This document shows, piece by piece, positions 25,857 through 39,898 of a stretch of DNA of 64,000 nt. Origin of the DNA: a virus (Duplodnaviria > Heunggongvirae > Uroviricota > Caudoviricetes); the IMG/VR virus record IMGVR_UViG_3300032007_000008, one strand, 5' to 3'. The first letter of the stretch is position 1. Every line of letters starts with the position of its first letter. Position numbers and translations under genes: made by a program. The notes below the pieces were generated by a model, which was given only the letters and a program-made list of their open reading frames with translations, searched no databases and was not told where the DNA came from.

Positions 25857-26136
25857 CATGTCGATAGGTCTTCGACCGTCGAAAAATCATCTTTTGGTAA
25901 AAAGAGTTTCTGTAGAGGAAACAGTGGGGGGAACGAATTTCGTTCTCCCCAAGGATTTCCATCAGAAACCGATGAAGTGCGTTGTCGTTGACATTGGCGA
26001 TGAGCATCTCGATACTGGGATGGAGTTAAAGGTTGGAGATACCATTCTGCTGCCGAAATATGGGAGCACGAAAGTTATAAAAGATAATGAAGAGTATCAT
26101 CTTTGCCATATAGATGATATAATTGGAATTTTATGA
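25846..26136 (+). CDS. groES: co-chaperonin GroES
   Basis: LRP...LLVKR, VVDIG, LKVGDTILLPKYG and DDIIGIL. Confidence 0.85.
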   Translation: MPTDMSIGLRPSKNHLLVKRVSVEETVGGTNFVLPKDFHQKPMKCVVVDIGDEHLDTGMELKVGDTILLPKYGSTKVIKDNEEYHLCHIDDIIGIL

Positions 26137-26744
26137 AAAACGACGAAAAGAACAAGCCATCCAATACAGTCTCCAACGAGCAGGCGGCAGAGCCAATAGA
26201 AAAGAACTGCACAAACTATGTAGACGGGAATAGCGTTTTTATTCTTGGAGCATTTGACGATACTATATCTAAGAACATCGTGCCAAACCTTGTAAAGATT
26301 ATAAATCAGCAAAAATCCCTAAAAAATGGAAAAATTGATTTTTATATCAATTCATATGGCGGGTATTGCTCTGAGCTGTACAGCATATTGTCTTTGGTCT
26401 CGCTTGCCAAATCAAACGGAATAAAGATAAACACGTTTAACATGGGTATTGCATATAGCTGTGCAAGCATACTTTCAGTAGTCGGAGATGAGAGAAAGAT
26501 GTTTAAATGCGCAAAGAATCTCATGCATTTGGGAGAAACCTTTTCTTCAAGCTCGACCTTTATGCAATTGGACAGAAATCACAAGAGGCAGAAAGACCAT
26601 TTCAACAACATAGTCTCAATGTATGCCGCGCACACTAAGCTTACTGAAAAGAAAATACGTGAGCTTATGTCTGATAATTGCTGCTATCTAAACTCAAACG
26701 AATGCTTGAAATTTGGACTTGTTGATGAAGTTTGCGATTGTTAA
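26133..26744 (+). CDS. clpP: ClpP-like serine protease
   Basis: FYINSYGG, AYSCAS (catalytic Ser), LMH and ECLKFGLVD. Confidence 0.8.
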   Translation: MKNDEKNKPSNTVSNEQAAEPIEKNCTNYVDGNSVFILGAFDDTISKNIVPNLVKIINQQKSLKNGKIDFYINSYGGYCSELYSILSLVSLAKSNGIKINTFNMGIAYSCASILSVVGDERKMFKCAKNLMHLGETFSSSSTFMQLDRNHKRQKDHFNNIVSMYAAHTKLTEKKIRELMSDNCCYLNSNECLKFGLVDEVCDC

Positions 26745-27470: not shown

Positions 27471-27752
27471 TTGCATGTACGCCGATGAGGAGTAAAACTC
27501 AGTGCGCTTAATGTCAAACGATAGCTCAGTGACGAGAGTAGAGGTAACTCGTTCGGTCATTCACCATGATGGAAGGTTGGTTGGTGATGCGTCTTAGGAC
27601 GTAAGCCCATTCCCTTGCAGAGTTCAAGTCCTGCCAATGAGTGCGCACCCGAAATATTTTAGGGGATACATAGAACAGACGCGGAAAGGTCCGCGAAGCC
27701 TGTGCGAAATAAATAAGATATGCAGCAGGTCCCATTCGGAGGTCGGCATGCC

Positions 27753-27846
27753 AGACTCGTCAACTGCAATCCATAACCGCACTAGTGTGCTCCATACGTG
27801 AATCTGTCGGTAAACACATAAAATATAGACCGTCAAGCGAGTCTAG
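27753..27846 (+). ncRNA. CAGCAA-scaffold RNA (CTGCAA variant)
   Basis: AGACTCG...CGAGTCT-AG closing stem and ACTGCAA. Confidence 0.5.
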
Positions 27847-27855
27847 TTTCTTTTA

Positions 27856-27922
27856 AAGGCGCATACAGCAACAATATTTTATGCAATTGTTAGGGAACAG
27901 TCAAGCACAAAAACGCGCCTTG
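27856..27922 (+). ncRNA. CAGCAA-scaffold RNA with hairpin payload (GGG-containing loop)
   Basis: AAGGCGC-ata-CAGCAA...GCGCCTT-G. Confidence 0.65.
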
Positions 27923-27927
27923 GTAAT

Positions 27928-28010
27928 GGGATTATGGCGGAATTGGCATACGCAGCAGTTTGAGGGACTGTCCCTTTTGGGTGAGAGTTCGAATCTCTCT
28001 AATCCCACCA
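27928..28010 (+). tRNA. tRNA-Leu(GAG)
   Basis: Cloverleaf, ttGAGgg, ACCA end. Confidence 0.9.
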
Positions 28011-28014
28011 CAGA

Positions 28015-28099
28015 GCGGAATTGATGGAATTGGTAGACTTGGCGTCTTCAGACGGCGTTGCCAAATGGCGTATTGGTTCGAATCCAATATTCCGCACCA
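28015..28099 (+). tRNA. tRNA-Leu(CAG)
   Basis: Cloverleaf, ttCAGac, ACCA end. Confidence 0.9.
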
Positions 28100-28106
28100 C
28101 AAAGAT

Positions 28107-28183
28107 GCATCAATAGCTCAATCGGCCAGAGTACCTCCTTGCCATGGAGGATGTTACGGGTTCGAGTCCCGTTTGGTGCTCCA
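28107..28183 (+). tRNA. tRNA-Gly(GCC)
   Basis: Cloverleaf, ttGCCat, TCCA end. Confidence 0.92.
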
Positions 28184-28195
28184 CAATTTACGATT

Positions 28196-28308
28196 TAGAT
28201 GCGCACAGCGACTTTCATATCACGGTTTGTTTAGGTTCGACTCCTAAAGGCGATTCGGAGAAATCCGAGCGTGGAAGCGGTTCGATTGAGAACCGGCTCC
28301 GCATCTAG
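28196..28308 (+). ncRNA. CAGCAA-scaffold RNA with degenerate permuted tRNA (CAT-like loop)
   Basis: TAGATGCG-ca-CAGCGA...CGCATCTA-G; T arm TTAGG-TTCGACT-CCTAA; GAAA-capped hairpin. Confidence 0.6.
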
Positions 28309-28312
28309 CTTT

Positions 28313-28388
28313 GGGGACTTGGTAGAGCGGCTTCATATGCCTCACTGTCTATGAGGCGAGACGGGTTCAACCCCCGTAGTCCCCGCCA
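28313..28388 (+). tRNA. tRNA-Asp(GTC)
   Basis: Cloverleaf, ctGTCta, GCCA end. Confidence 0.88.
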
Positions 28389-28541
28389 TTCTAAACCGCA
28401 TTTGGCCAATGCGGAGCAAACGGCACCCCTGAGAGGTGGGCATCCGTGGAGAAATGCGGCTGGCGGTCTCATGAACCGCTTGTCTTCTCCTTGCCGGGGT
28501 AAGAGTCCTCACAATCTTCTCTGTTTCTTGTGATACTGAAT

Positions 28542-28618
28542 ACGGACTTGGTATATGTGGATTTGTGCCTCGGTCTCCAAAACCGAAGGAGCTTGTTCGA
28601 CTCAAGCAGTCCGTGCCA
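28542..28618 (+). tRNA. tRNA-Trp(CCA)
   Basis: Cloverleaf, ctCCAaa, GCCA end. Confidence 0.88.
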
Positions 28619-28626
28619 ATTCAAAT

Positions 28627-28700
28627 GGGCCGGTGATGTAATGGTAGCATGCGACCTTTGCAAGGTTGATGTCGGGGTTCGAATCCCCACGTGTCCACCA
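28627..28700 (+). tRNA. tRNA-Ala(TGC)
   Basis: ttTGCaa, G3.U70, ACCA end; irregular acceptor stem. Confidence 0.85.
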
Positions 28701-28908
28701 ACTTAGGCTAAAGCCTTGCTGTCATGTGCTTCTGCATGACAGCTCAATAGTAAATCAGGAGCTGGTGGAGGACTCCATGCTCAACCTCGCAATCGCGAGG
28801 AACCCGCGTTTCGCTCTTCCTTCGGGTTTAAATGAGGCAAAGAGCTGGTAGCAAACGTTGTCCTAAAGTTCGGAGGCCGTTGTAAGATTCGGCGAGAAAG
28901 GACGATAT

Positions 28909-29003
28909 TTTAGCCGTTGTCGGGGTTCGAATCCCATCGATGCCGAAAGCGAAAGCAGGCTCGTAATCATGCAGTGCGCATGAAGGAGGTATCAACGGCT
29001 AAA
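28909..29003 (+). ncRNA. structured RNA with T arm inside an 11-bp closing stem
   Basis: TTTAGCCGTTG...CAACGGCTAAA enclosing GGG-TTCGAAT-CCC. Confidence 0.5.
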
Positions 29004-29130
29004 GATTTTTTCTGCGGTCGAGTTCTGATATTCAAATATCATTCAAAAACACTCGCCAAAAAACGTCGGAAGCGAGACTAGGAGTTAGCGTCGAAATACG
29101 TGCGTCGGACGACAAGCTTCACTTTGAAAT

Positions 29131-29204
29131 GGGCCGCTAGTTCAGTGGTAGAACATCCCGTTCGCAACGGGAAAACCTGAGTTCGATTCTCAGCGTGTCC
29201 ACCA
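29131..29204 (+). tRNA. tRNA-Ala(CGC)
   Basis: ttCGCaa, G3.U70, ACCA end. Confidence 0.85.
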
Positions 29205-29212
29205 TTCTCATT

Positions 29213-29295
29213 GCTTCGGTAATTCCATAACGGGGAATGTCAATCCCACCCAGTAATGGAGGATTGAATCAGTTCGTAACTGTATCGGGGCTCCA
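29213..29295 (+). ncRNA. atypical tRNA-like RNA with CCA end and extended anticodon arm
   Basis: GCTTCGGT/ATCGGGGC acceptor + TCCA; ATTCC/GGAAT D stem; TCAATCC/GGATTGA arm. Confidence 0.55.
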
Positions 29296-29302
29296 ATTTA
29301 AT

Positions 29303-29376
29303 GGGCCGATAGTTCAGTGGTAGAATGCTTCAATGGCATTGAAGAGATGGCGGTTCGATTCCGCCCGTGTCCACCA
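29303..29376 (+). tRNA. tRNA-Ala(GGC)
   Basis: atGGCat, G3.U70, ACCA end. Confidence 0.85.
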
Positions 29377-29441
29377 TTCGGAGATGGCTGTGTTCTCAAC
29401 AGTCAACTGCGGCATCTCCGAAAAATTTTTCAAAAAACTGG

Positions 29442-29521
29442 TTGCGAAAAACGCAGTCATGTGCTATAATAGGCGGCGTTTCCGAAAGGAAGCTGGTTCT
29501 TTGACAATTGAATGTAGATGA
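29442..29521 (+). promoter_or_regulatory. second rrn-like promoter/leader with boxA
   Basis: TTGCGA...TGCTATAAT-AGGCGGCG; TTCCGAAAGGAA hairpin; GTTCTTTGACAATTGAATGTAGATGA, nearly identical to the first leader. Confidence 0.75.
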
Positions 29522-29525
29522 AGAC

Positions 29526-29591
29526 GGGTGTGTAGCTCAAGAAGAGCGTTCGTCTGAAAGATGTGGGTGTGAAATCCCACTACACTCACCA
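29526..29591 (+). ncRNA. anticodon-arm-truncated tRNA-like RNA with CCA
   Basis: GGGTGTG/TACACTC acceptor + ACCA, D arm and T arm; only TTC-gtct-GAA where the anticodon arm should be. Confidence 0.6.
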
Positions 29592-29666
29592 TGCGGAGTA
29601 TAGCAACGGTAGCTAATCAGCCTCATAAGCTGAAGGTCGGTGGTTCGACTCCACCCTCCGCTACCA
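29592..29666 (+). tRNA. tRNA-Met(CAT), initiator-like 1:72 mismatch
   Basis: ctCATaa; T1:T72 mismatch, but lacks the three G-C pairs of the initiator anticodon stem. Confidence 0.8.
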
Positions 29667-29741
29667 AGGAGGCCACAGCGCGGCATTAAGTTGCCGTTTC
29701 ATTAGTTTGCGTTATCATGCTCGCCGTAAGCTCTGTTAGAT

Positions 29742-29819
29742 AGGAGCGTAGCTCAGCCCGGTGAGAGCAGCATCCTTATAAGTTGTTGGTCGGTGGTTCA
29801 AATCCACTCGCTCCTACCA
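29742..29819 (+). tRNA. tRNA-Ile(TAT)
   Basis: Cloverleaf, ctTATaa, ACCA end. Confidence 0.8.
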
Positions 29820-29822
29820 AAT

Positions 29823-29898
29823 AGTCCTGTAAGCTAATTGGATAAACTTCAAGGCTACGAACCTTGTATTCCGGGTTCAAGTCCCGGTGGGACTGCCA
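29823..29898 (+). tRNA. tRNA-Arg(ACG)
   Basis: ctACGaa, GCCA end. Confidence 0.9.
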
Positions 29899-29905
29899 TT
29901 GCCGA

Positions 29906-30027
29906 AAGACGCACACAGCAATTCAACTTCTAAAATTCACTGTTAATGAAAAGGCGTGGGTTCGAATCCCGCAACCGCACGGCAAAGCGGTTTAGCTTAG
30001 TGGTAGAGCTTTAAAGAAGGCGTCTAG
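29906..30027 (+). ncRNA. CAGCAA-scaffold RNA carrying circularly permuted tRNA-Asn(GTT)
   Basis: AGACGC-aca-CAGCAA; anticodon arm ctGTTaa, T arm, 3' acceptor AACCGC, linker, 5' acceptor GCGGTT, D arm; GCGTCT-AG. Confidence 0.8.
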
Positions 30028-30263
30028 TTATTTAATTTCATGCAACGGCTGCTGTATCGATGATTTGCAGAATTCAAAGTTCTGTCAACAGACAATGACG
30101 CAATAATCGATATGGTTTTAACAGCGAAAGCCTTTGCAGACTTGCAACCGCCGAGGCAGATGGAGGCGGCGGACGATGGAGGGGTGTCGCTCACCCCGTT
30201 ATCCGTATGAACCATTGGGAGTGCTGCGTCCCGCTCAGCCCGTCGAAGACGGACAACGCAGAT

Positions 30264-30379
30264 AAGTCACATGCAGCAATTAAAATTCTCCACCATTTGG
30301 GGAAATAGCATAATTGGTTAGTGCGTCCGTCGAAAGGCGGAAGGTTCTGGTTCGAATCCAGATTTAAATTGGTGACTTG
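30264..30379 (+). ncRNA. CAGCAA-scaffold RNA carrying permuted, anticodon-less tRNA with Ala identity
   Basis: AAGTCAC-atg-CAGCAA; TTCTCC-ACCA precedes GGGGAAA; D arm; TCCGTC-GAAA-GGCGGA; T arm; GTGACTT-G. Confidence 0.75.
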
Positions 30380-30391
30380 TTTTCAATCTTT

Positions 30392-30457
30392 AAGACTCAT
30401 ACAGCAACAAGCTATAAGCAATTGACAGTTAATCAATCACGCTAATACCGAGTCTTG
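30392..30457 (+). ncRNA. CAGCAA-scaffold RNA with isolated anticodon arm (GTT)
   Basis: AAGACTC-ata-CAGCAA; ATTGA-caGTTaa-TCAAT; GAGTCTT-G. Confidence 0.75.
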
Positions 30458-30461
30458 CCTT

Positions 30462-30537
30462 GCCTTGATAACACAGTGGTTTAGTGTGTCAGCCTTCCAA
30501 GCTGAAGACACCGGTTCGAATCCGGTTCAGGGCTCCA
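30462..30537 (+). tRNA. tRNA-Gly(TCC)
   Basis: ctTCCaa, TCCA end. Confidence 0.9.
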
Positions 30538-30543
30538 TGATGA

Positions 30544-30631
30544 TGCTAGGTAGACCTGTAGGGAGCAGGGGCAGACTGTAAATCTGTTGTGTTAACGCAC
30601 CCTGTAAGTTCGACTCTTACCCTAGCAACCA
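30544..30631 (+). tRNA. tRNA-Tyr(GTA)
   Basis: ctGTAaa, long variable arm, ACCA end. Confidence 0.88.
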
Positions 30632-30805
30632 GAGAGGTGGCAGAAAAGCAGATGCAGTGTCTTTCGAGGACTGGCCATTGTCGATAATAGACGGTTTGTA
30701 AAAACGTTCCTTAAGGTTTCCGTCTGTGGTCAAGGAGTTAGCTACTCATGGAATTACCACTAATCGCATATGGCATTGGAGGTTCAAACCCTCCCCTCTC
30801 AACCA
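30632..30805 (+). ncRNA. tRNA-like RNA with large internal domain
   Basis: GAGAGG/CCTCTC acceptor + ACCA, D arm, T arm GGAGG-TTCAAAC-CCTCC, with ~115 nt between the D and T arms. Confidence 0.6.
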
Positions 30806-30806
30806 T

Positions 30807-30890
30807 TGGCATGTAGCGCGTATACGGTGATAGCTGCTCTTAAGTACATAGAGCCAACAAATGCGGGTTCGACTCCTGCCATGCCTACCA
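30807..30890 (+). ncRNA. atypical tRNA-like RNA with CCA
   Basis: GGCATG/CATGCC acceptor, T arm, and a GCTCT/AGAGC arm with a 9-nt loop. Confidence 0.55.
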
Positions 30891-30907
30891 TCCTCGGTGA
30901 TAACCAC

Positions 30908-31092
30908 CTTGGCAAAAACCCATACGAACGTGGTATGGTCGAGCTGTGAGAACAACGACACAGAGAGCAGTGGAACTTATATCCATGTAGCGACAGTTCT
31001 TCGTGACTGCCAGACGCGATATGAAATCCCTTGAATGGGTCTGGTTTCAGTGTGAGTGAGGCAGGCTACGCTGTGTAAAAGTCACTGCCAAG
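30908..31092 (+). ncRNA. multibranch structured RNA of unknown type
   Basis: CTTGGCA...TGCCAAG closing stem with several internal hairpins; no ORF. Confidence 0.4.
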
Positions 31093-31101
31093 ATTTTCAA
31101 T

Positions 31102-31357
31102 GGTGGATAGTTCAAATGTAACAGAATAAAGGGCATGTTCCGAGGGAACGAGGAGCAAGTAGTGTCACAAAAGGTGTGTGCAGTTCTTGACAATCTTCAC
31201 GCAGCGAGCCAGGTGACCCTGGGGTTGGCGAGTTTGGATTGGGATTGGAATGCAAGTTCTGTCCCAGTTGACCATAGGCTCTCGCCTTGAATTCGTTCGT
31301 ACTAAAAAATCCCCAAAGCCCCGCAAGACGGAGGGTGAAAATCCCTCGCCACCGCCA
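31102..31357 (+). ncRNA. tRNA-like RNA with ~180-nt insert at the anticodon position
   Basis: GGTGG/CCACC acceptor + GCCA, D arm, GGGC...GCCC stem and T arm GAGGG-TGAAAAT-CCCTC. Confidence 0.55.
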
Positions 31358-31364
31358 ATTTCAT

Positions 31365-31452
31365 CACGCCGTGCGCCGAATGGATAAGGCATCGGCCTTC
31401 TAAGCCGACGGGAGTTTTCCCATTGCAGGTTCGAGTCCTGTCGGCGTGGCCA
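31365..31452 (+). tRNA. tRNA-Arg(TCT) with long variable arm
   Basis: ctTCTaa; GGGAGTTTTCCC variable arm; GCCA end. Confidence 0.85.
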
Positions 31453-31505
31453 TGGAACTCTGATAAATCGTAACGGTAATAATGACTCTTTCGGAATATG
31501 AAATT

Positions 31506-31591
31506 GGAGAAGTGCGATAATGGTATTCGAGCGGCTTGCTAAGCCGTGGGGTTAAGAGCCTCTCCCGGTTCGAGTCCGGGCTTCTCCGCCA
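31506..31591 (+). tRNA. tRNA-Ser(GCT)
   Basis: ttGCTaa, long variable arm, GCCA end. Confidence 0.9.
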
Positions 31592-31595
31592 CGAA

Positions 31596-31683
31596 GCTCC
31601 TGTGGCGAAACTGGCAGTACGCATGGGGCTTAAACCCCCAGCCCGGTATCGGGGTAGGGGTTCGAATCCCCTCTGGAGCACCA
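31596..31683 (+). tRNA. tRNA-Leu(TAA)
   Basis: ctTAAac, ACCA end. Confidence 0.9.
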
Positions 31684-31687
31684 AGAT

Positions 31688-31763
31688 GTTCCGATAAGCT
31701 AACAGGACAAACTTCTGCACTCCTAATGCGGGTTTGACGGTTCGAGTCCGTCTCGGAATACCA
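31688..31763 (+). tRNA. tRNA-Arg(CCT)
   Basis: ctCCTaa, ACCA end. Confidence 0.85.
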
Positions 31764-31768
31764 ACTAT

Positions 31769-31850
31769 GCTAGAGTGGTGGAACGGCATACACAGTGGCT
31801 TCAAATACCACGGCTTCGGCATATGGGTTCAAATCCCATCTCTAGTACCA
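31769..31850 (+). tRNA. tRNA-Leu(CAA)
   Basis: ttCAAat, ACCA end. Confidence 0.9.
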
Positions 31851-31854
31851 AACT

Positions 31855-32009
31855 AAGGCAGATACAGCAAACATTGTTTTGTAAATAAAAAATGCTAAAC
31901 AATACCCAGACTGCGGGTTAAAGCCGTCAAACGCATCAATCAAGCATGGCGTTGTTATGCTGACAGTTTCGATTGCTACGTACTTCTGTAAAAAGCGAAA
32001 ACTGCCTTG
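31855..32009 (+). ncRNA. CAGCAA-scaffold RNA, long subtype with GTA anticodon-like hairpin
   Basis: AAGGCAG-ata-CAGCAA...GTTTCGATTGC...CTT-ctGTAaa-AAG...CTGCCTT-G. Confidence 0.65.
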
Positions 32010-32062
32010 GTGTCTCCGACGGGACACAACGCGCCGAAGGGCATCGGTGCAAAGCTATTTCA

Positions 32063-32183
32063 AAGATGCCAACAGCATATTCATTCAGCCTGGTAAGCTC
32101 GTGGTTACGGGTTCAAATCCCGTTGGACTGGCGAAAGCTGGTCTATAGCTCAATCTGGTAGAGCGCGTATATATGGCATCTTG
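32063..32183 (+). ncRNA. CAGCAA-scaffold RNA carrying circularly permuted tRNA-Thr(GGT)
   Basis: AAGATGCC-aa-CAGCAT; AGC-ctGGTaa-GCTCG, T arm, acceptor closed by GAAA, D arm; GGCATCTT-G. Confidence 0.82.
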
Positions 32184-32190
32184 TCTTTTT

Positions 32191-32272
32191 GGGTATGTGG
32201 TGGAATGGCATACACGGCAGATTTAGGTTCTGTTGCGAAAGCATGGGGGTTCGAATCCCTCCATACCCACCA
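32191..32272 (+). tRNA. tRNA-Leu(TAG)
   Basis: ttTAGgt, ACCA end. Confidence 0.9.
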
Positions 32273-32284
32273 CAAACTAGCAAT

Positions 32285-32359
32285 TGGCGATTAATATAAC
32301 GGTTATTATGGAACGCTGATACCGTTCTCACGATAGTTCGACTCTATCATCGCCAACCA
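32285..32359 (+). tRNA. tRNA-Ile(GAT)
   Basis: ctGATac, ACCA end. Confidence 0.82.
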
Positions 32360-32360
32360 A

Positions 32361-32448
32361 TGCGGCATGTCGCAAGACCGTGGGTTCGAATCCCACCTCC
32401 AGACAGAATGAGCTGGGCGTGACTGAGCAGGATTAAGGTGATGCCGCA
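32361..32448 (+). ncRNA. permuted tRNA-like RNA opened at the anticodon (YrlA-like topology)
   Basis: TGCGGCAT...ATGCCGCA stem enclosing a variable arm, T arm, loop-closed acceptor and D arm. Confidence 0.6.
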
Positions 32449-32455
32449 ACACTTT

Positions 32456-32794
32456 GGGGGTGAACAGGTTTTCGACTGTATCATTCCGTAGAAGATGGCA
32501 ATTCGGACAAGCATGATGCCCGTTAAAGCATATGCGAAAAAAAGTAAACGGCAACGATTACAGAATGGCTGCTTAAGCCGACGAAAGGGAATGACCTCCG
32601 ATAGCTCCTGAGTAGTTTCATCATCGGAGCGGCTTCGCGAAGTTTGGCCTTCATAGCGCGGCGGCACATCAAGGCTATAGGGGAAACGAGGTCTGTGTCT
32701 CTCGCCAACCCGAAATCGATGACACGATGAATGATTGTAGCAAGTCTTCGAACGAAGTTATAGGACGCGGGTTCGATTCCCGCCACCTCCACCA
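32456..32794 (+). ncRNA. ssrA: tmRNA
   Basis: GGGGGTG...TTCGAC 5' end; GACGCGGGTTCGATTCCCGCCACCTCCACCA 3' end with G3.U70; tag frame ...GNDYRMAA*. Confidence 0.93.
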
Positions 32795-32798
32795 ATAT

Positions 32799-32874
32799 GC
32801 TGGGTTGGCTGAACGGTTAACGCGCCGTCCTTGTAAGACGGAGAATGGGGTCTCGGAATCCTCACCCAGCTCCA
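32799..32874 (+). tRNA. tRNA-Thr(TGT)
   Basis: ctTGTaa, TCCA end; atypical T loop. Confidence 0.8.
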
Positions 32875-33072
32875 TTTGCGGTTCTCGATTTACCGAGCAT
32901 AGAAAAATCGTAGCGCAACGGTAGGTGCGTAGCCAGCCGTGTCTATGACCGGCACCGTGGACTTTCGGGATTTCCCATGGTCAAGGCACATCAGTGAACT
33001 TAAGATAGCTGTTGTGACAAATTCGGCTTCTCCAAAGTCTTCTCCCATACCGTAGGGGGAGGCAAAATTCCT

Positions 33073-33223
33073 AAGACGTGAAACTGCAACAAAACAGGAA
33101 TACGCTAATCCGATGGTCGTAGGTTCAAATCCTACCTGTGCGGCAAACGGGTGATTCCGTCCCGCACGGTAGCTCAGCGGTTAGAGCATCGGACATTTCT
33201 ACGCCTTGTGCGTTCGCGTCTTG
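33073..33223 (+). ncRNA. CAGCAA-scaffold RNA (CTGCAA variant) with permuted tRNA opened in the anticodon loop (GCT)
   Basis: AAGACGTGAA...TTCGCGTCTT-G; GCTAA-TCCGA, T arm, CTGTGCGG/CCGCACGG acceptor, D arm, TCGGA. Confidence 0.78.
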
Positions 33224-33235
33224 TGATTTCTGAGT

Positions 33236-33312
33236 GGTGATGTGCTACAGTGGCCTACTAGACCCGCCTCATACGCGGAGGTTCATTGGTTCGAATCCAA
33301 TCGTCACTACCA
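33236..33312 (+). tRNA. tRNA-Met(CAT) (elongator Met or Ile2)
   Basis: ctCATac; ACCA followed by a second CCA. Confidence 0.78.
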
Positions 33313-33319
33313 CCAAATC

Positions 33320-33394
33320 CCTTTGGTAGTTCAACGGCTAGAATAGAAGATTGTGATTCTTCGGACGTGGGTTCGACTCCCACCCATCGGACCA
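33320..33394 (+). tRNA. tRNA-His(GTG), irregular acceptor
   Basis: ttGTGat; two acceptor mismatches, A73, and no G-1:C73 pair. Confidence 0.7.
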
Positions 33395-33522
33395 TTTCGG
33401 ATGAAAGGTACTTACGCATCGAACAGGAGTTCGAGTCTCCGGCGTGACGGTTCGATTCCATAACGCGCAGGTGCAAAATGCGGAACGTTCTGACTGGACA
33501 GGCTTCCAAAACCCTTTCTAAT

Positions 33523-33610
33523 GGAAAGTTGTCAGAGTGGTTTAACGTACTCCGTTCGAAGCGGAGAGGGTGTAAAAGCTCCGCAGGTTCGAATCCTGCA
33601 CTTTCCGCCA
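33523..33610 (+). tRNA. tRNA-Ser(CGA)
   Basis: ttCGAag, long variable arm, GCCA end. Confidence 0.9.
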
Positions 33611-33613
33611 AAT

Positions 33614-33701
33614 GGAGGGATATTCTAATTGGTAAGGAGCCATCTTGGAAAGGTGGTGGGGTTAATAGCCCTTGGGAGTTCGAACCTCCCTCTCTCCGCC
33701 A
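33614..33701 (+). tRNA. tRNA-Ser(GGA)
   Basis: ttGGAaa, long variable arm, GCCA end. Confidence 0.9.
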
Positions 33702-33730
33702 TTTCTCCGAGAAAGAAAACACTTGCATAT

Positions 33731-33816
33731 GCAGACCGTGTATGCTAAATTCGGGTTTCGAAAGGAACTTTCGCAAATTTGGGGGTGGGGTACGAGTCCT
33801 CATAAGGTCTGCACCA
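33731..33816 (+). ncRNA. CCA-ended tRNA-like RNA without recognisable anticodon
   Basis: GCAGACC/GGTCTGC + ACCA; TGGGG-TACGAGT-CCTCA T-like arm; GAAA-capped internal hairpin. Confidence 0.45.
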
Positions 33817-33820
33817 TAAT

Positions 33821-33895
33821 GCTCCTGTCGAATAACGGTAAGTTCGACTGCTTCTCACGCAGTAGACCAGGGTTCAACTCCCTGCTGGAGTGCCA
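33821..33895 (+). tRNA. tRNA-Glu(CTC)
   Basis: ttCTCac, GCCA end. Confidence 0.88.
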
Positions 33896-34019
33896 TAGAC
33901 ATAAACAGCAATTAAAGCTCTTATCAAACCGGTTATGGCGGTTCGAATCCGTCGCTCCGAGGAAACTTGGAACTCGTCTAATGGCTAGGACTCTGGTCAG
34001 CGAAAAGAATTATGTCTAG
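33896..34019 (+). ncRNA. CAGCAA-scaffold RNA with permuted tRNA opened in the anticodon loop (ATC-like)
   Basis: TAGACATA-aa-CAGCAA; ttATCaa-ACCGG, T arm, acceptor closed by GAAA, D arm GTCT/GGAC, CTGGT; TATGTCTA-G. Confidence 0.78.
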
Positions 34020-34024
34020 CATTT

Positions 34025-34099
34025 GCTGGATTGGCTGAGAGGTTAGGCACTTCACTCGTAATGAAGCTCACGGAAATTCGAGTTTTCCATCCAGCTCCA
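34025..34099 (+). tRNA. tRNA-Thr(CGT)
   Basis: ctCGTaa; A53:U61 T stem; TCCA end. Confidence 0.85.
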
Positions 34100-34174
34100 G
34101 CTGAGTTGGCTGAGAGGTTAGGCACTCCCTTGGTATGGGAGATTACGAAAATCCGAGTTTTTCACTCAGCTCCA
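34100..34174 (+). tRNA. tRNA-Thr(GGT)
   Basis: ttGGTat; A/U-rich T stem; TCCA end; abuts the previous tRNA. Confidence 0.82.
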
Positions 34175-34179
34175 AAAAT

Positions 34180-34255
34180 GGGAGTATAGCTCAATTGGCA
34201 GAGCAGCAGACTCTTAATCTGCGGGTTCGGGGTTCGATTCCCCGTGCTCCTACCA
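34180..34255 (+). tRNA. tRNA-Lys(CTT)
   Basis: ctCTTaa, ACCA end. Confidence 0.92.
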
Positions 34256-34267
34256 TTTCGACGAAAT

Positions 34268-34342
34268 TCGGGATTATCTCAACGGCAAGAGTCCCTCCTC
34301 GACACGGAGGGTATGGATGTTCGATTCATTCATCCCGAACCA
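34268..34342 (+). tRNA. tRNA-Val(GAC)
   Basis: tcGACac (C33), ACCA end. Confidence 0.82.
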
Positions 34343-34352
34343 TTTACCATAT

Positions 34353-34429
34353 GGCCGGTTAGCTCAGCAGGTTAGAGCATCTGTCCTACACACAGAATGT
34401 CGGGGGTTCGATTCCCTCATCGGCTACCA
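34353..34429 (+). tRNA. tRNA-Val(TAC)
   Basis: ccTACac (C33), ACCA end. Confidence 0.88.
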
Positions 34430-34431
34430 TC

Positions 34432-34493
34432 AAGACGCTATCAGCAATCTTCAACCTTGGTTTATTCATACAAATCGCCTAACATGCGTCTTG
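34432..34493 (+). ncRNA. CAGCAA-scaffold RNA with short CAT-loop hairpin
   Basis: AAGACGC-tat-CAGCAA...ttCATac...GCGTCTT-G. Confidence 0.68.
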
Positions 34494-34497
34494 CTAT

Positions 34498-34576
34498 GGC
34501 GGCTTACCCAATACTGGAATAGGGAATGGTCTGCAAAACCATTTTAATGAGGGTTCGATTCTCTCAGCCGTCTCCA
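34498..34576 (+). tRNA. tRNA-Cys(GCA)
   Basis: ctGCAaa, TCCA end. Confidence 0.88.
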
Positions 34577-34579
34577 TAT

Positions 34580-34654
34580 GCGGCCATAGCAAAACGGTTA
34601 TGCACCTGACTTTTAATCAGGGATACGTGAGTCCGACTCTCACTGGCCGTACCA
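34580..34654 (+). tRNA. tRNA-Lys(TTT)
   Basis: ctTTTaa, ACCA end. Confidence 0.88.
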
Positions 34655-34661
34655 TCCAAAG

Positions 34662-34737
34662 TGTCCTGTAGTATAACCAGGTAGTACAGGAGAATTTGAG
34701 TCTTTTGGTCTGGGTTCGAATCCCGGCGGGACAACCA
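34662..34737 (+). tRNA. tRNA-Gln(TTG)
   Basis: atTTGag, U1-A72, ACCA end. Confidence 0.85.
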
Positions 34738-34748
34738 CGGATTATCAT

Positions 34749-34822
34749 TGGGGGTTAGTATAATGGTAGTACAGCTGACTCTGACTCAGCTTGAGGAGGT
34801 TCGAATCCTCCACCCCCAACCA
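34749..34822 (+). tRNA. tRNA-Gln(CTG)
   Basis: ctCTGac, U1-A72, ACCA end. Confidence 0.9.
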
Positions 34823-34825
34823 CAT

Positions 34826-34842
34826 GTCATCTACATTCAATT
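34826..34842 (+). repeat. trailer complementary to both array leaders
   Basis: GTCATCTACATTCAATT is the exact reverse complement of 27258-27274 and (16 nt) of 29506-29521. Confidence 0.85.
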
Positions 34843-34905
34843 TACAAAAAATTGTTGCGTACATGGGGTTGTTGTGGTATAATTTACGGCAACAAAGGAA
34901 AAAAT

Positions 34906-36831
34906 ATGTCAAACAAAGTTCTAGGAATAGACCTTGGCACAGGAAATTCCTGCATGTCAATTCTTGAAGGTGGAAGTGCAACTATAATCACGAATGCAGA
35001 GGGTGCTAGGACAACACCCTCAATAGTAGCGTTTACAAAGACCGGAGAACGACTGGTCGGCCAATCCGCGAAGAGGCAGGCCGTTACAAATCCTAAGAAC
35101 ACCGTGTATTCGATAAAACGCTTTATAGGGCGGAAATACTCGGAGGTTACGGAAGAGGCAAAGCTTGTCCCATACGAAGTCGTTGAGGCTGCAAATGGCG
35201 ATGCACACGTTAAAATTGACGGAAAGACGTATTCGCCAGAGGAAATTTCATCGTTTATCCTCGCAAAGCTTAAAAAGGATGCGGAGTCGTATCTTGGAGA
35301 AGAGATTACTCAGGCCGTAATAACGGTGCCAGCATATTTCAACGATTCGCAGAGACAGGCCACGAAGAATGCCGGACGAATAGCTGGGCTTGATGTTTTG
35401 CGAATCATAAACGAGCCTACGGCAGCTGCTTTGGCATATGGTTCCGGCAAGGATAAGTCCGGTGTCGTGGCAATCGCCGACTGTGGATGCGGTACATATG
35501 ACATTTCAATCCTCGATGTTGGCGATGGCGTGTTTGAAGTCAAAGCCACGAACGGAGATACACACCTCGGTGGAGATGATATCGACCAGTGCGTCATGAA
35601 GTGGCTCATCGAGGATTTCAAGGCACAAAACGGAATTGATTTGTCAGCCGACAACATGGCGTTGCAGAGAATCAAGGAAGAGTCGGAAAAGGCGAAATGC
35701 GCACTTTCTACCGAAAGCACATATTCAATCAGCCTTCCGTTTATAACTGCTGACGCTACAGGGCCGAAGCACCTTGAGGCTACAATTACCCGCTCAAAGC
35801 TTGAGGAGCTTTGCGATGGCGTAATCGACAGGCTTGTTGCTCCTGCAAATAGCTGCATAAAGGATGCAGAAGCAGGTTCAATCAACGAAGTTCTTCTCGT
35901 CGGAGGAATGACGAGAATGCCATGCGTACAGCGCAAAATAAAGGATATTTTTGGCATAGAACCTTCGAAGGGAGTAAACCCAGATGAAGCTGTCGCGATG
36001 GGAGCTGCAATACAGGGCGGAATTATAAAGGGTGAGGTCAAGGACACCCTTCTTCTCGACGTTACACCGCTTACACTCTCAATCGAGACAATGGGCGGAA
36101 TTGCAACTCCAATCATAACGAGAAACACGACTATTCCCACGAAGAAAAGTCAGATTTTCTCAACGGCTGAGGACAACCAGCCTGCTGTAGATATTCACAT
36201 CACGCAAGGCGAAAGAAAGTTTTCAAACGACAACAAGTCTCTTGGACGGTTTAGGCTTGATGGAATTCCGCCTGCTCCACGCGGAGTGCCTCAGATAGAA
36301 GTAAGTTTCGACATCGACGCTAATGGAATACTCAGTGTAGCTGCGAAAGACCTTGGAACCGGCAAGGAGCAGAAAATTACCATTACCGCCTCATCGGGGT
36401 TGTCCAAAGAGGACATAGACAAGATGACTGCCGACGCAGAGAAGTATGCAGACGAAGACAAGAAGAGGTCGGAACTTGTCGGATTGAAAAACAACGCCGA
36501 TGCGATTGCTCATTCGTCCGAGAAATCGGCAAACGAGCACAAGGAACGGCTTGGAAATGACCTGTATGACCGAGTTATGTCGGCAGTAAAATCGGTTCGT
36601 GAAGCTGCGAAGGGAGATTCTTCAGATGCGATAAAGACTTCCATGGACGAATTGAACAAGGTCAATGAGGAGGTGGCAAAGGTGATTTATCCAAGTTCAA
36701 GCAGAAGCAATCCGGCAAGCGGAATGTCGGAACAAGACCTAAAGAACATGTTTGGGGGGAGTAATGGTCCGTTCAGTGGGTTCTCAAAGGGTGGATTCGG
36801 CGGAAATAACGACAACGTGGTGGATGTCTAA
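34906..36831 (+). CDS. dnaK: Hsp70 chaperone DnaK
   Basis: [44 protein letters not shown] and [12 protein letters not shown]; AAAGGA RBS. Confidence 0.97.
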
Positions 36832-37229
36832 TGAAGTATTCCGTAAAAAGCATCCATAGAAGTAGGACAAAGCTCAAGTTTGACGCGAAACATCGCAAAC
36901 TCGACCATTCTATAACCACAGAGTACAGCAATCTTGACGAGAGTGAAGTTCTACAGGTAATCAGTGAATTTTTGGATGTCAATCCAGATGAACCTGAGCC
37001 TAAGCTAAATGCGCCATTTGAGGTACCTGAGGAAATCAGCAGAAAGATACTTCGCTCGTATAATATGAGGATGTCCAAGTATCACGAGATAGCCGACGAC
37101 TTCAAGGTTTTCACCGAGTCTTCTGATTTTGAGCACATCTTCGAACTTGAGTCTCTGTTCGAAAAGGATGAACATCCAGAGGATTCGGAGACTGTCGGTG
37201 ATTCGATTTCCATAATGAAGCTGCAATAG
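36831..37229 (+). CDS. hypothetical protein
   Basis: 132-aa ORF, translationally coupled to dnaK (TAATG). Confidence 0.6.
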   Translation: MKYSVKSIHRSRTKLKFDAKHRKLDHSITTEYSNLDESEVLQVISEFLDVNPDEPEPKLNAPFEVPEEISRKILRSYNMRMSKYHEIADDFKVFTESSDFEHIFELESLFEKDEHPEDSETVGDSISIMKLQ

Positions 37230-37237
37230 GCCGACAA

Positions 37238-38038
37238 ATGAACGCGCCAATACGATATTTCGGAGGAAAGGGTACAATGTTCAACTCAATTTTGGAGAAC
37301 TTTCCTAAAGAGAAGGATTATCGAATCTATGTGGAGCCGTTCGGCGGGACATACACCGTCGGCCTTCACATGGATTACCTTCCTCCGATTGAGATTTACA
37401 ACGACCTTGAAAAGAATGTGTATTCTCTGTACAAGGTTCTTAAGAATCGTGAGATGTACGATGAGTTTCTCAAAAGGGTAAGCTTAACCCCATTTTCCGA
37501 GGATGAAAGGAGGGAAGCGAAAGAGAAGCTTGAGGATGATTCAATTTCGATTATTGACAGGGCCGTATATTTCTTCGTAATGAACAGGATGAGCCACAAC
37601 GGTATAGGTGGCATAAGCCTGAACATGGTAGTTAGGCGTGGAATGTCGAAAAGCGTATCCGATTATCTATCAGCCATAGACAGGATGCCAGAACTTCACG
37701 AACGACTGTCTCGCGTTCTAATATTGAATAGAGATGCAATTGGGCTGATGGACAAGTTTTCTCAGGAAAATTGTTTTCTCTATTGCGACCCTCCATATGT
37801 ATGGGACACTCGCGGCGCAACTAGGTACAAGATGGACAACAACAACGAATGGCATGAAAGCTTCGTTGATTGCTGCATACGTAGCAATGCCAAGATTCTC
37901 ATTTCAGGATACGAACATCCGATATACGACAGACTTGAGCAGAACGGCTTTACAAAGGTTACGTTCAATGTGAACACGATAACTGGAACAGGTAAACCAA
38001 AGACGAAGACAGAAGCCCTTTGGAAAAACTACCCATGA
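37238..38038 (+). CDS. D12-class (Dam-like) DNA adenine methyltransferase
   Basis: YFGGK, YVEPFGG, YND and YCDPPY motifs. Confidence 0.9.
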   Translation: MNAPIRYFGGKGTMFNSILENFPKEKDYRIYVEPFGGTYTVGLHMDYLPPIEIYNDLEKNVYSLYKVLKNREMYDEFLKRVSLTPFSEDERREAKEKLEDDSISIIDRAVYFFVMNRMSHNGIGGISLNMVVRRGMSKSVSDYLSAIDRMPELHERLSRVLILNRDAIGLMDKFSQENCFLYCDPPYVWDTRGATRYKMDNNNEWHESFVDCCIRSNAKILISGYEHPIYDRLEQNGFTKVTFNVNTITGTGKPKTKTEALWKNYP

Positions 38039-39183
38039 ACGTTCTGTTCGTTCAGTTTGCAAATTCCATGTTCCCCCGTTTTGAGGTATCTGACGGATAT
38101 TGGGACGATTTCTATTCCACATATTCCGATTTTGGATATAATAGGATGGTTGACGCATTTGAAATACCAAAATGGATTGCTGAGGTGTGCTATTTCCTTC
38201 CAAAGGACTGTAAAAGAAAAATATGTTGGGTTCACCATTCTACTGACGAGGCTGTGAACGAAATCAGAAATGGAAATTACGACTTTGTTTTGTTTTCCGT
38301 TATGACCTGCACAAAATCGTTCACGAATGATATCATAAGCAGATGTCCGTCACAACTTTTTCTTATTGGTGGATATGATTCTTGGATTAAAGAAGCTGAG
38401 ATAAACTACATAAATGTAATGTGTGCAGATGACATGTGCTCAACTGCACGGAAGATGGGATTGGAGTATCGATTTGGGACTGATTATTCTCTTTTTGATG
38501 GATGGACGGTTCTCCCAAGACTTACTCTTTCATATGGGTGCATGAACAACTGCAAGTTTTGCATAATACCACATGTAATGTCATCTGTGCCTGAGGATGT
38601 TATAATGCAGCAAGTCGAGTCGTTCAAGCCACTAAAGTTCAAGCTGATATACATAGATGATAAGACTTTTGGACAGGCCGACAATTACATGATACTCAAA
38701 AGACTTAAGCAGGAAATACTGAAATATAATACGGAGTTCAGGGGATTCGTAGTACAGACGACAACAGGCATGCTTGCATCAAAATCTAAAATTTTTAAGG
38801 ATATTGGGGTTGTGGTTGCCGAAATAGGAGTGGAGACGTTCAATAATGAGATACTTGCAGCATACAGAAAGCCGTCTTCCGAAAAGATGGTTATAAAATC
38901 AATTTCTGCCGCAGTTGAAAACGGAATAAAGGTCATACCAAACATAATAGTTGGATTTCCAGAAGAAACAGACGATACTTACGCTAGGACTGAACGATTT
39001 TTGACTGAGAATGCCGACTCTCTTTTTGGAGTGAATTTTGCCATGTATACGGATTATTCATCTCCAGATTGCGTTGGAGAGGTCGATTTCGCAGCAAGCG
39101 ACAAAATAGAGCTTCACAGAAAATATTGGAAAAGACTAAATAGTCTAGCTTCTCAAAAAATCTTGAAAAAGACTATTGCATAA
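38035..39183 (+). CDS. radical SAM enzyme with degenerate B12-binding-like N-terminus
   Basis: GCMNNCKFC (CxxxCxxC), IGG, IGVET and IIVGFPEET. Confidence 0.85.
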   Translation: MNVLFVQFANSMFPRFEVSDGYWDDFYSTYSDFGYNRMVDAFEIPKWIAEVCYFLPKDCKRKICWVHHSTDEAVNEIRNGNYDFVLFSVMTCTKSFTNDIISRCPSQLFLIGGYDSWIKEAEINYINVMCADDMCSTARKMGLEYRFGTDYSLFDGWTVLPRLTLSYGCMNNCKFCIIPHVMSSVPEDVIMQQVESFKPLKFKLIYIDDKTFGQADNYMILKRLKQEILKYNTEFRGFVVQTTTGMLASKSKIFKDIGVVVAEIGVETFNNEILAAYRKPSSEKMVIKSISAAVENGIKVIPNIIVGFPEETDDTYARTERFLTENADSLFGVNFAMYTDYSSPDCVGEVDFAASDKIELHRKYWKRLNSLASQKILKKTIA

Positions 39184-39263
39184 ATTCGACGTTTATGCTA
39201 TAATGGGCGGCGTTGGATGAAAAAGTTTCTCCGACATGTTCTTTGACATTTTATGGCTGATTT
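39176..39263 (+). promoter_or_regulatory. third rrn-like promoter/leader with boxA
   Basis: TTGCAT...TGCTATAAT-GGGCGGCG; hairpin; TGTTCTTTGACAT; GGCTGATTT pairs with AAATCAGCC at 39564-39572. Confidence 0.7.
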
Positions 39264-39266
39264 AGT

Positions 39267-39438
39267 TAGATGGTTACAGCAAAATACTATACTCAAACCA
39301 TGAGACTAGTTATTCGACGTTCGGCTAGGGGTGTGAGTCCCCTTGCTTTGGAGAACGGCGGTGATACTTGTAGGCTGCTGCACAATGCAACCTTCCGGTT
39401 TCGATTGCCTCAATCTTCCGTAAAAAGCCGCCATCTTG
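39267..39438 (+). ncRNA. CAGCAA-scaffold RNA, long subtype with GTA anticodon-like hairpin
   Basis: AGATGG-tta-CAGCAA...GTTTCGATTGC...CTT-ccGTAaa-AAG...CCATCT-TG. Confidence 0.65.
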
Positions 39439-39483
39439 CCGGGCTGCCCCGGACTAAGGCGTAGGGCAACGCCACTTCATTTT

Positions 39484-39551
39484 TAGACGCTTGCAGCAAT
39501 TCCTTTTTCTAACTGAACTGCTAATTCACAACTAGAGAAAAAGGCGTCTTG
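39484..39551 (+). ncRNA. CAGCAA-scaffold RNA with isolated anticodon arm (GCT)
   Basis: AGACGC-ttg-CAGCAA; CTTTTTCT/AGAAAAAG stem; TGAA-ctGCTaa-TTCA; GCGTCT-TG. Confidence 0.75.
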
Positions 39552-39830: not shown

Positions 39831-39898
39831 CCTTGGAACTTTTATAGTTCCCAGAATAGCAAAAATGTGCTATAATGGTCGCAGATAAAGGAGACAAT

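Follow-up and report, generated by a model that had tools for sequence, protein, structure and literature searches.

Among the tRNA genes of a 64,000-nucleotide stretch of phage DNA (IMG/VR record IMGVR_UViG_3300032007_000008, Caudoviricetes; hereafter the window) lie 13 short elements built on one framework, and the locus raises the question of what such elements encode and which partner they serve. A sequence-only reading of the window had proposed a constant protein-binding handle that displays variable tRNA mimics, by analogy with the bacterial YrlA RNAs and Ro60, and had put the system forward as a candidate undescribed one. The 13 elements are genes for small non-coding RNAs that belong to one widespread family of phages and bacteria. 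These handle RNAs are probably the partners of a Ro60-like ring protein carrying DUF2828 and vWA domains, in a branch parallel to the Ro60/Y-RNA particle. The family is real, widespread and, as far as searched, undescribed, while the function proposed for it draws on genomic association and a predicted fold.

A common handle with variable stems

All 13 elements (e01 to e13, Table 1) lie on the + strand inside an array of 39 tRNA genes and a transfer-messenger RNA (tmRNA) gene. Each comprises a 7-bp terminal stem, about three unpaired bases, the hexamer CAGCAA or a variant of it (CTGCAA, CAGCGA or CAGCAT), an enclosed payload and an unpaired 3′ G. The pattern WAG-N7-CAGCRW (W, A or T; R, A or G) matches the window 15 times, where 3.4 ± 1.9 matches are expected, and 11 of these coincide with + strand starts reported earlier. 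The sequence-only reading had listed 13 starts, eleven on this pattern and two with CTGCAA at a longer spacing, and all 13 were located at the places it gave, on the tRNA strand. When the handle is defined by CAGCAA placed 10 nt after the first stem base and by the 3′ G, 11 of the 13 elements fit; in e01 and e09, both with CTGCAA, this spacing is longer by 2 and 1 nt, respectively.

The closing stems vary in sequence yet pair, as had been claimed, and all seven stem pairs quoted in support of that claim are correct. An exact 6-nt complement of the 5′ strand lies downstream in 12 of the 13 elements, the remaining one, e09, being closed through a G-U pair within a 10-bp stem. A test that is agnostic of the stem finds an exact 6-nt complement 30-236 nt downstream of 9 of the 11 5′-half motifs in the window and upstream of none; reversed or shuffled words give no such case. 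A relaxed scan of the window, admitting any CNGCAA at a spacing of 8-12, returns mostly noise and one weak extra candidate, a divergent 14th member held with low confidence. This candidate occupies non-coding DNA between e04 and e05 and lacks the AG...CU ends. Rfam searches of the elements at E values up to 5 yield no match to a self-cleaving ribozyme, to manA or to GOLLD/ROOL. The full-length match to a known family that would have undone the claim of novelty was likewise absent, YrlA being matched at sub-threshold scores alone.

The handle extends far beyond this phage. As the payload range of 35-150 nt makes a single alignment of all members unreliable, direct counts with controls were used instead. 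A strict pattern with 20 fixed bases, AGACGC-N3-CAGCAA-N30-60-GCGTCTTG, is present in at least 110 viral contigs from IMG/VR and in no fewer than 120 bacterial ones, compared with a chance expectation, roughly estimated, of a few viral and a few tens of bacterial matches. Some GC-rich bacterial matches in coding-like sequence look like chance. A general scan of viral loci for AG-N7-CAGCAA with a 6-bp closing stem recovers 290 elements with 31 different stem sequences, against 2-9 elements with substitute hexamers. Several features that formed no part of the search are conserved among the non-redundant elements. The seventh base pair is formed in 234 of 247 (A-U 183, U-A 34, G-C 14, G-U 2, C-G 1), and the base 3′ of the stem is G in 242 of 247. 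An A directly precedes CAGCAA in about 80% of cases and a G almost never directly follows it. The handle can thus be described as a 7-bp terminal stem, about three free bases, (A)CAGCAA and one free 3′ G. The stem test applied to the viral loci succeeds for 245 of 311 motifs, with 8-24 in controls. Every element compared with its nearest tRNA lies on the same strand (198/198), and 86 of 238 are at most 20 nt from a tRNA.

A variant handle occurs in Escherichia phage warpig (L236:7880-8010), with 8 nt between AG and CAGCAA and a 3′ GG rather than UG, around a payload consisting of a T arm, a capped acceptor and a D arm. Since the strict scan missed this RNA, the family counts are lower bounds.

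DUF2828 genes beside the handle RNAs

In bacterial contigs (Clostridia, Treponema and others), the RNAs form arrays of 6-8 elements over 1-1.5 kb of non-coding DNA, and the arrays directly adjoin a gene for a protein of 490-590 amino acids with DUF2828 and DUF7788/vWA domains. RtcB, whose co-occurrence the sequence-only reading had suggested checking, is encoded inside the handle-RNA array of Treponema bryantii. A WYL-domain gene stands ahead of the array at two Clostridia loci, and a 303-306-amino-acid open reading frame (ORF) with no Pfam match also precedes two Clostridia arrays.

The association holds in viruses from either direction. Viral records picked by the RNA alone encode DUF2828 in 46 of 47 cases, among them 21 of 21 that are at least 90% complete, and the lone exception is a record that is 24% complete; all 14 control genomes lack the gene. 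Of viral loci picked by DUF2828 alone, 76 of 80 have handle RNAs within 10 kb. At DUF2828 loci, 206 handle RNAs share the strand of the gene and 23 are on the opposite strand, with 107 lying within 250 nt upstream of it. Both links that had been put forward for checking, to DUF2828 and to RtcB, are borne out at the level of the family. A motif-blind search for 7-bp stems followed by G, upstream of DUF2828 genes, returns CAGCAA as the commonest hexamer at the right offset, and CAGCGA and the +1 spacing are likewise seen there.

Cultured phages offer the same arrangement. With tblastn, DUF2828 is detected in 709 records of cultured phages, Felixounavirus, Listeria, Staphylococcus, Enterococcus, Vibrio and Mycobacterium phages among them. 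In Mycobacterium phage MiniMac, three handle RNAs lie directly 3′ of a gene annotated as a 'Ro-like RNA binding protein'; one is a short hairpin type devoid of an anticodon-type loop, one is YrlA-like and one is of the anticodon-arm type. In the E. coli phage warpig (Felixounavirus), the DUF2828 gene is directly upstream of the tRNA array that holds the variant handle RNA. DUF2828 proteins of these phages include warpig_84 and MiniMac gp57. Both phages have genetically tractable hosts, E. coli K-12 for warpig and M. smegmatis for MiniMac.

For an AlphaFold2 model of DUF2828 (predicted local distance difference test score 80), the 13 best PDB matches are all Ro60/TROVE structures, from Thermus phage phiLo, Deinococcus, Xenopus and human, over 506-587 aligned columns. 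Because the handle travels with a gene for a protein of predicted Ro60 shape, the handle RNAs are most likely the partner RNAs of DUF2828, which supports the idea of a constant protein-binding handle with a variable display. TROVE (PF05731) is absent from all five RNA-bearing viral records searched, and the likely partner is DUF2828 rather than classical Ro60. In the window, neither TROVE nor DUF2828 is found among the 39 ORFs scanned for these families. Literature searches that covered DUF2828, tRNA mimics of phages, armless tRNAs in phages and any link of Class I RNAs to Ro60 returned no description of a CAGCAA-handle family and no paper tying DUF2828 or Class I RNAs to Ro60-type proteins.

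Payloads and the tRNA island

The payloads are modular, and their description as interchangeable tRNA parts is apt. Short members of the family (50-70 nt) often carry a plain anticodon arm with a 5-bp stem and a 7-nt loop CUNNNAA, and the 'anticodons' displayed include UUU, UGA, GUU, GCA, GAU, GCU, GGU and CAU. Further payloads add a D-loop-like UGG stretch and a T arm, and some members enclose a whole tRNA body (e.g., L005:1316-1431). Others are circular permutations comprising a T arm, a loop-capped acceptor and a D arm, which an anticodon arm may precede or follow. Within the Clostridia contigs L112, L182, L188 and L166, single payload types are conserved across genomes within arrays. One Clostridia payload type of about 80 nt contains ...AAGAAUGCCGA...CUCGGAGGUAAGGC... 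together with a Shine-Dalgarno-like GGAGGU.

The claim that the payloads in the window are mostly tRNA-derived stands for six elements (e03, e04, e05, e08, e09 and e10), which contain T arms, D arms or capped acceptor-like hairpins. It is reduced to an anticodon-arm-like hairpin in e02, e06, e11 and e13, and fails for e01, e07 and e12, which have no recognisable tRNA part. The order of modules in e04 and e08 is anticodon arm, T arm, capped acceptor, D arm, and e09 and e10 follow it with no anticodon arm. The payload of e04 is a permuted tRNA body that matches the YrlA core at 29949-30012 (30.9 bits); the best such match in the window is that of e08 at 32100-32167 (36.2 bits). In e09, a T arm, a long capped acceptor-like hairpin and a D arm are united by a CCGAU/AUCGG joining stem in a YrlA-type layout, and the element scores 35.4 bits over positions 1-114 of the full YrlA model, whose gathering score is 69. 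The parts of e05 follow the natural tRNA order, so that the handle occupies the position of the acceptor stem; Rfam gives a partial tRNA match at 30303-30365 (37.7 bits, model positions 5-66). The payload of e02 is a hairpin with UUAGGGA in its loop, and the same loop recurs at other loci. The block common to e07 and e12 was searched for in other loci and not found.

Table 1. Handle-RNA genes and other features of the window
Feature	Position	Strand	Description	Source or score
e01	27752-27846	+	Variant handle, stem AGACTCG/CGAGTCT, CTGCAA 9 nt after AG, 3′ AG; payload with no clear tRNA part	
e02	27856-27922	+	Canonical handle AAGGCGC-ATA-CAGCAA ... GCGCCTT-G; short payload	
e03	28196-28308	+	CAGCGA handle; T-arm-like hairpin (UUCGACU loop) and two more hairpins	
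e04	29906-30027	+	Handle; anticodon arm (loop CUGUUAA, GUU), T arm, loop-capped acceptor-like hairpin, D arm	
e05	30264-30379	+	Handle; D arm, GAAA-capped anticodon-type stem, T arm, natural tRNA order	
e06	30392-30457	+	Canonical handle; short payload, anticodon-arm-like hairpin AUUGA-CAGUUAA-UCAAU; e02 paralogue	
e07	31855-32009	+	Canonical handle; 130-nt payload with no recognisable tRNA likeness; 3′ block common to e12	
e08	32063-32183	+	CAGCAU handle, 8-9 bp stem; weak anticodon arm (CUGGUAA), T arm, GAAA-capped acceptor-like hairpin, D arm	
e09	33073-33223	+	Variant handle, 10-bp stem, CTGCAA 8 nt after AG	
e10	33896-34019	+	Handle UAGACAUA ... UAUGUCUA-G; T arm, GAAA-capped hairpin, D-arm-like hairpin	
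e11	34432-34493	+	Canonical handle AAGACGC-UAU-CAGCAA ... GCGUCUU-G; short payload, 8-nt-loop hairpin	
e12	39267-39438	+	Canonical handle; 150-nt payload, 3′ end related to e07	
e13	39484-39551	+	Canonical handle, inner 8-bp stem, anticodon arm mimic CUGAA-CUGCUAA-UUCAC (GCU)	
Candidate 14th member (divergent, low confidence)	30111-30217	+	Stem AUGGUU/AACCAU, UUAA, CAGCGA, 3′ UGG	Relaxed scan
Rfam-only tRNA calls (three and one weak)	29303-29373, 29526-29588, 32799-32871, 30807-30887	+		Rfam
Phage-encoded tmRNA	32456-32794	+	Tag peptide GNDYRMAA; within the tRNA array	106 bits
Extended -10 element	29459-29470, 39197-39207, 39866-39876	+	TGCTATAAT, G-rich bases after	3 copies
Tad3-like protein	25119-25856	+	Thoeris inhibitor domain	
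ClpP-like protease	26133-26744	+		
DnaK/Hsp70	34852-36831	+	Full length, mid tRNA island	
PARP-catalytic/WGR protein	46527-47759	+		

The 39 tRNA genes and the tmRNA gene span 27.0-39.9 kb, every one on the + strand. Rfam adds three tRNAs that are absent from the default ARAGORN run, plus one weak call (22.9 bits), and loose T-arm-like fragments occur near 28900-28940, 32375-32400 and 33440-33470; tRNA-derived debris or mimics in the island therefore exceed the 13 elements. The extended -10 element TGCTATAAT is likely the phage's promoter type for RNA gene clusters. Its middle copy has a poor -35, failed the consensus scan and stands about 60 nt ahead of e12. The 13 elements are probably expressed together with the tRNAs. 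A sub-threshold match to the twister-P1 ribozyme (L005:2327-2377, 41 bits against a gathering score of 67) falls within a tRNA island whose 193-kb phage bears handle RNAs as well.

The window seems to come from a large phage that is poorly charted, and its products include a giant BspA-type leucine-rich repeat protein, a protein with a head-fibre domain, a baseplate spike OB domain, ThyX, two DNA methylases and a radical-SAM enzyme. PHROGs gave almost no matches for ten unknown ORFs of the window, the DnaK-like protein as a query found no relative among viral contigs, and two window proteins looked up as exact sequences had no match. Exact 32-mers from the window were absent from viral and metagenome collections, and megablast of the tRNA island against cultured phages matched single tRNAs alone.

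Possible roles and relation to known RNAs

The elements are packed a few bases from tRNA ends on the tRNA strand. They would be co-transcribed with the tRNAs and freed by the nucleases that trim the neighbouring tRNAs. By analogy with Y RNAs, in which Ro60 reads a short 5′-strand motif beside the terminal stem, the handle would be the docking site for a DUF2828 ring, and the variable payload, whether an anticodon-arm mimic, a T/D 'elbow', a capped acceptor or a whole or permuted tRNA body, would be the working end. It may tether the ring to tRNA-binding enzymes or nucleases, much as a Y RNA tethers Ro60 to PNPase, or it may serve as bait for tRNA-directed host enzymes such as anticodon nucleases. 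The DUF2828 gene of the window phage would lie outside the 64-kb window; since 46 of 47 other records have the gene, it is expected in the unseen part of this genome. DUF2828 (PF11443/PF25043) is a large family of unknown function to which a conserved RNA partner would give a testable role, and the Ro60/Y-RNA principle would thereby be carried to a second protein branch. The use of tRNA parts as exchangeable modules on one scaffold also bears on how phages respond to tRNA-targeting immunity.

Several points weigh against a partnership with DUF2828. A hidden Markov model built from nine proteins detects no DUF2828 homologue among all ORFs of the 64-kb window, so that pairing in the window phage itself would have to be extrapolated from other records. 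The 80 loci ascertained by the protein all represent the nearest relatives of a single query clade, with near-duplicates among them. TM-scores between the DUF2828 model and Ro60 are moderate (0.35-0.52), and a DUF2828 profile search against PDB sequences gives no match, the likeness to Ro60 coming from fold comparison alone. Co-occurrence, moreover, is not contact, and a different product of this gene neighbourhood could be the one that the RNAs serve. Docking of the handle to the protein, expression of the RNAs and the positions of their ends are predictions for every member, made from sequence.

It is rather improbable that the RNAs are free-standing decoys made of tRNA parts, directed against anticodon nucleases or tRNA-sensing defences, with a handle that contributes stability and processing only and has no protein partner. 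Many short payloads are textbook anticodon arms, with UUU, UGA, GUU, GCA and GAU among their anticodons, and tRNA-Lys(UUU) is a known target of anticodon nucleases. The elements also sit in tRNA arrays, and the window has other counter-defence genes, such as the Tad3 homologue. Decoys alone, however, leave unexplained an unpaired hexamer conserved at a fixed 5′ distance in phages and bacteria that are far apart, the almost constant presence of DUF2828 in the same genomes, and the payloads that have no anticodon loop (e03, e05, e07, e09 and e12). As a function of the payload, a decoy role is compatible with RNAs that partner DUF2828.

The tight placement between tRNAs, often 3-12 nt from their ends, and a terminal stem with a short 3′ overhang that looks like a nuclease product would also suit stems that are processing punctuation, that is, sites at which RNase III, an RNase E-type or a phage-encoded nuclease cuts the tRNA transcript to no further purpose for the freed RNA. 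This is very unlikely, given that bacterial arrays of 6-8 elements have few or no tRNAs near them, that payload types are conserved across genomes, which is not required of spacers, and that the majority of tRNA junctions in the window lack an element of this kind. There is scarcely more than a slim chance that the elements mature into reduced ('armless') or permuted tRNAs, receive an amino acid and serve in translation. A 7-bp terminal stem with one unpaired 3′ base reproduces the geometry of an acceptor stem and discriminator, in some members a D-loop-like GG is followed, as in a tRNA, by an anticodon arm and then a T arm, and L005:1316-1431 encloses a full tRNA body. The stem consensus and the 3′ G are nevertheless the same for every anticodon, which argues that no amino-acid identity is carried; CCA is not encoded, the true acceptor is loop-capped in permuted members, several members lack an anticodon loop, and ARAGORN in mitochondrial mode makes no call on the elements. 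Finally, chance matches or remnants of mobile DNA repeats would account for the repetition of the elements and nothing more. That idea is already refuted by the controls and can be given practically no weight, in view of the hexamer and stem statistics, of stems that differ among copies yet keep pairing, and of the constant tRNA strand.

A broader version of the partnership with DUF2828, which is speculative and on balance doubtful, would make the CAGCAA handle an ancient docking module of the DUF2828 branch, present in phages, bacteria and, through Class I RNAs, social amoebae, with exchangeable payloads that render the particle programmable. If so, each RNA would direct the ring to a single enzyme that acts on tRNA or to a single class of damaged tRNA, and phages could neutralise tRNA-cleaving defences or mend damage together with RtcB.

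Three known groups of RNAs invite comparison. With tRNA (RF00005) and reduced mitochondrial tRNAs, the handle RNAs share the 7-bp terminal stem, one unpaired 3′ base and CUNNNAA anticodon loops and, in some members, T loops and the D-loop GG. Unlike tRNA, they use one 'acceptor' for all anticodons, have no CCA, carry a hexamer in place of the D stem and cap their inner acceptors. None of the 13 elements forms a full cloverleaf whose acceptor is open and whose anticodon loop has 7 nt; e05 alone gives a partial match to the tRNA model, and its anticodon stem is capped by GAAA.

The Class I RNAs of Dictyostelium are about 60 nt long, with a 6-bp covarying stem, a fixed unpaired 11-nt motif (CCUUACAGCAA) and a variable middle (Kjellin 2021, PMC7919456), and are searched for by the pattern GTTGRCCTTACAGCAA ... 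GTCAACTG (PMC5054030). The 11-nt motif ends in ACAGCAA, 10 nt after the first stem base and thus at the same offset as in the phage handle; compared by published pattern, the last 7 nt agree and the first 4 nt differ. The tail after the stem, UG(U), matches the 3′ UG of the handle. Both kinds of RNA place a covarying stem around a fixed motif and have multi-copy, clustered genes. Only Class I RNAs, however, are eukaryotic and transcribed by an RNA polymerase (Pol) from a Dictyostelium upstream sequence element (DUSE) promoter about 60 nt upstream, whereas the window has bacterial-type -10 elements. Their reported binder is an RNA recognition motif protein (Rnp1A/CIBP) rather than DUF2828, no tRNA-like payloads are described for them, and they are reported to be unique to dictyostelids. 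An earlier reference for Class I RNAs is Aspegren 2004. The claim that the system is undescribed holds for Rfam 15 and the searchable papers and needs qualifying, in that the handle closely resembles a published RNA pattern. Class I RNAs are the closest known system in handle sequence, and this near-identity is a lead on RNAs that have had no mechanism since 2004.

The bacterial Y RNAs comprise YrlA and YrlB. YrlA combines a terminal stem, whose 5′ strand bears a GNCGAA(N)G motif that Ro60 presumably recognises, with a tRNA-like domain, and is encoded beside rsr (Chen et al. 2014, PMC4201824). Host PNPase is recruited by Ro60 of Thermus phage phiLo, which binds two Y-like RNAs (Yrl1/Yrl2) encoded just upstream of its gene (PMC12135203). 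Infernal aligns the whole of one handle RNA (L005:6065-6186) to YrlA, with the handle falling on the terminal stem of YrlA. Scores of the elements against YrlA (RF02553) are 27-38 bits, MiniMac included, compared with the gathering score of 69, and the short window elements have no match to Rfam YrlA at E values up to 5. Sub-threshold scores and a different motif mean that the elements are not members of RF02553.

The motif of the handle is (A)CAGCAA, that of Y RNAs GNCGAA(N0-1)G or CGAA, and the probable partner is DUF2828 with its predicted Ro60 fold rather than the Pfam TROVE protein of Y RNAs. YrlA is encoded no more than about 4 kb from a TROVE-domain Ro60 gene and shares its strand, an arrangement not seen for the window elements. 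In contrast to Y RNAs, many handle RNAs carry an anticodon arm alone or whole or differently permuted tRNA bodies, and up to 13 copies per genome are scattered through tRNA arrays. The tRNA-like domain of YrlA (T arm, loop-capped acceptor, D arm) is matched by e04, e08, e09 and e10 and not by the other nine elements. In both groups the ends are joined by a terminal stem with a short conserved 5′-strand motif beside it, the genes lie beside and often just upstream of the ring-protein gene, and in some bacteria they are linked to RtcB. Y RNAs are the closest known system in function.

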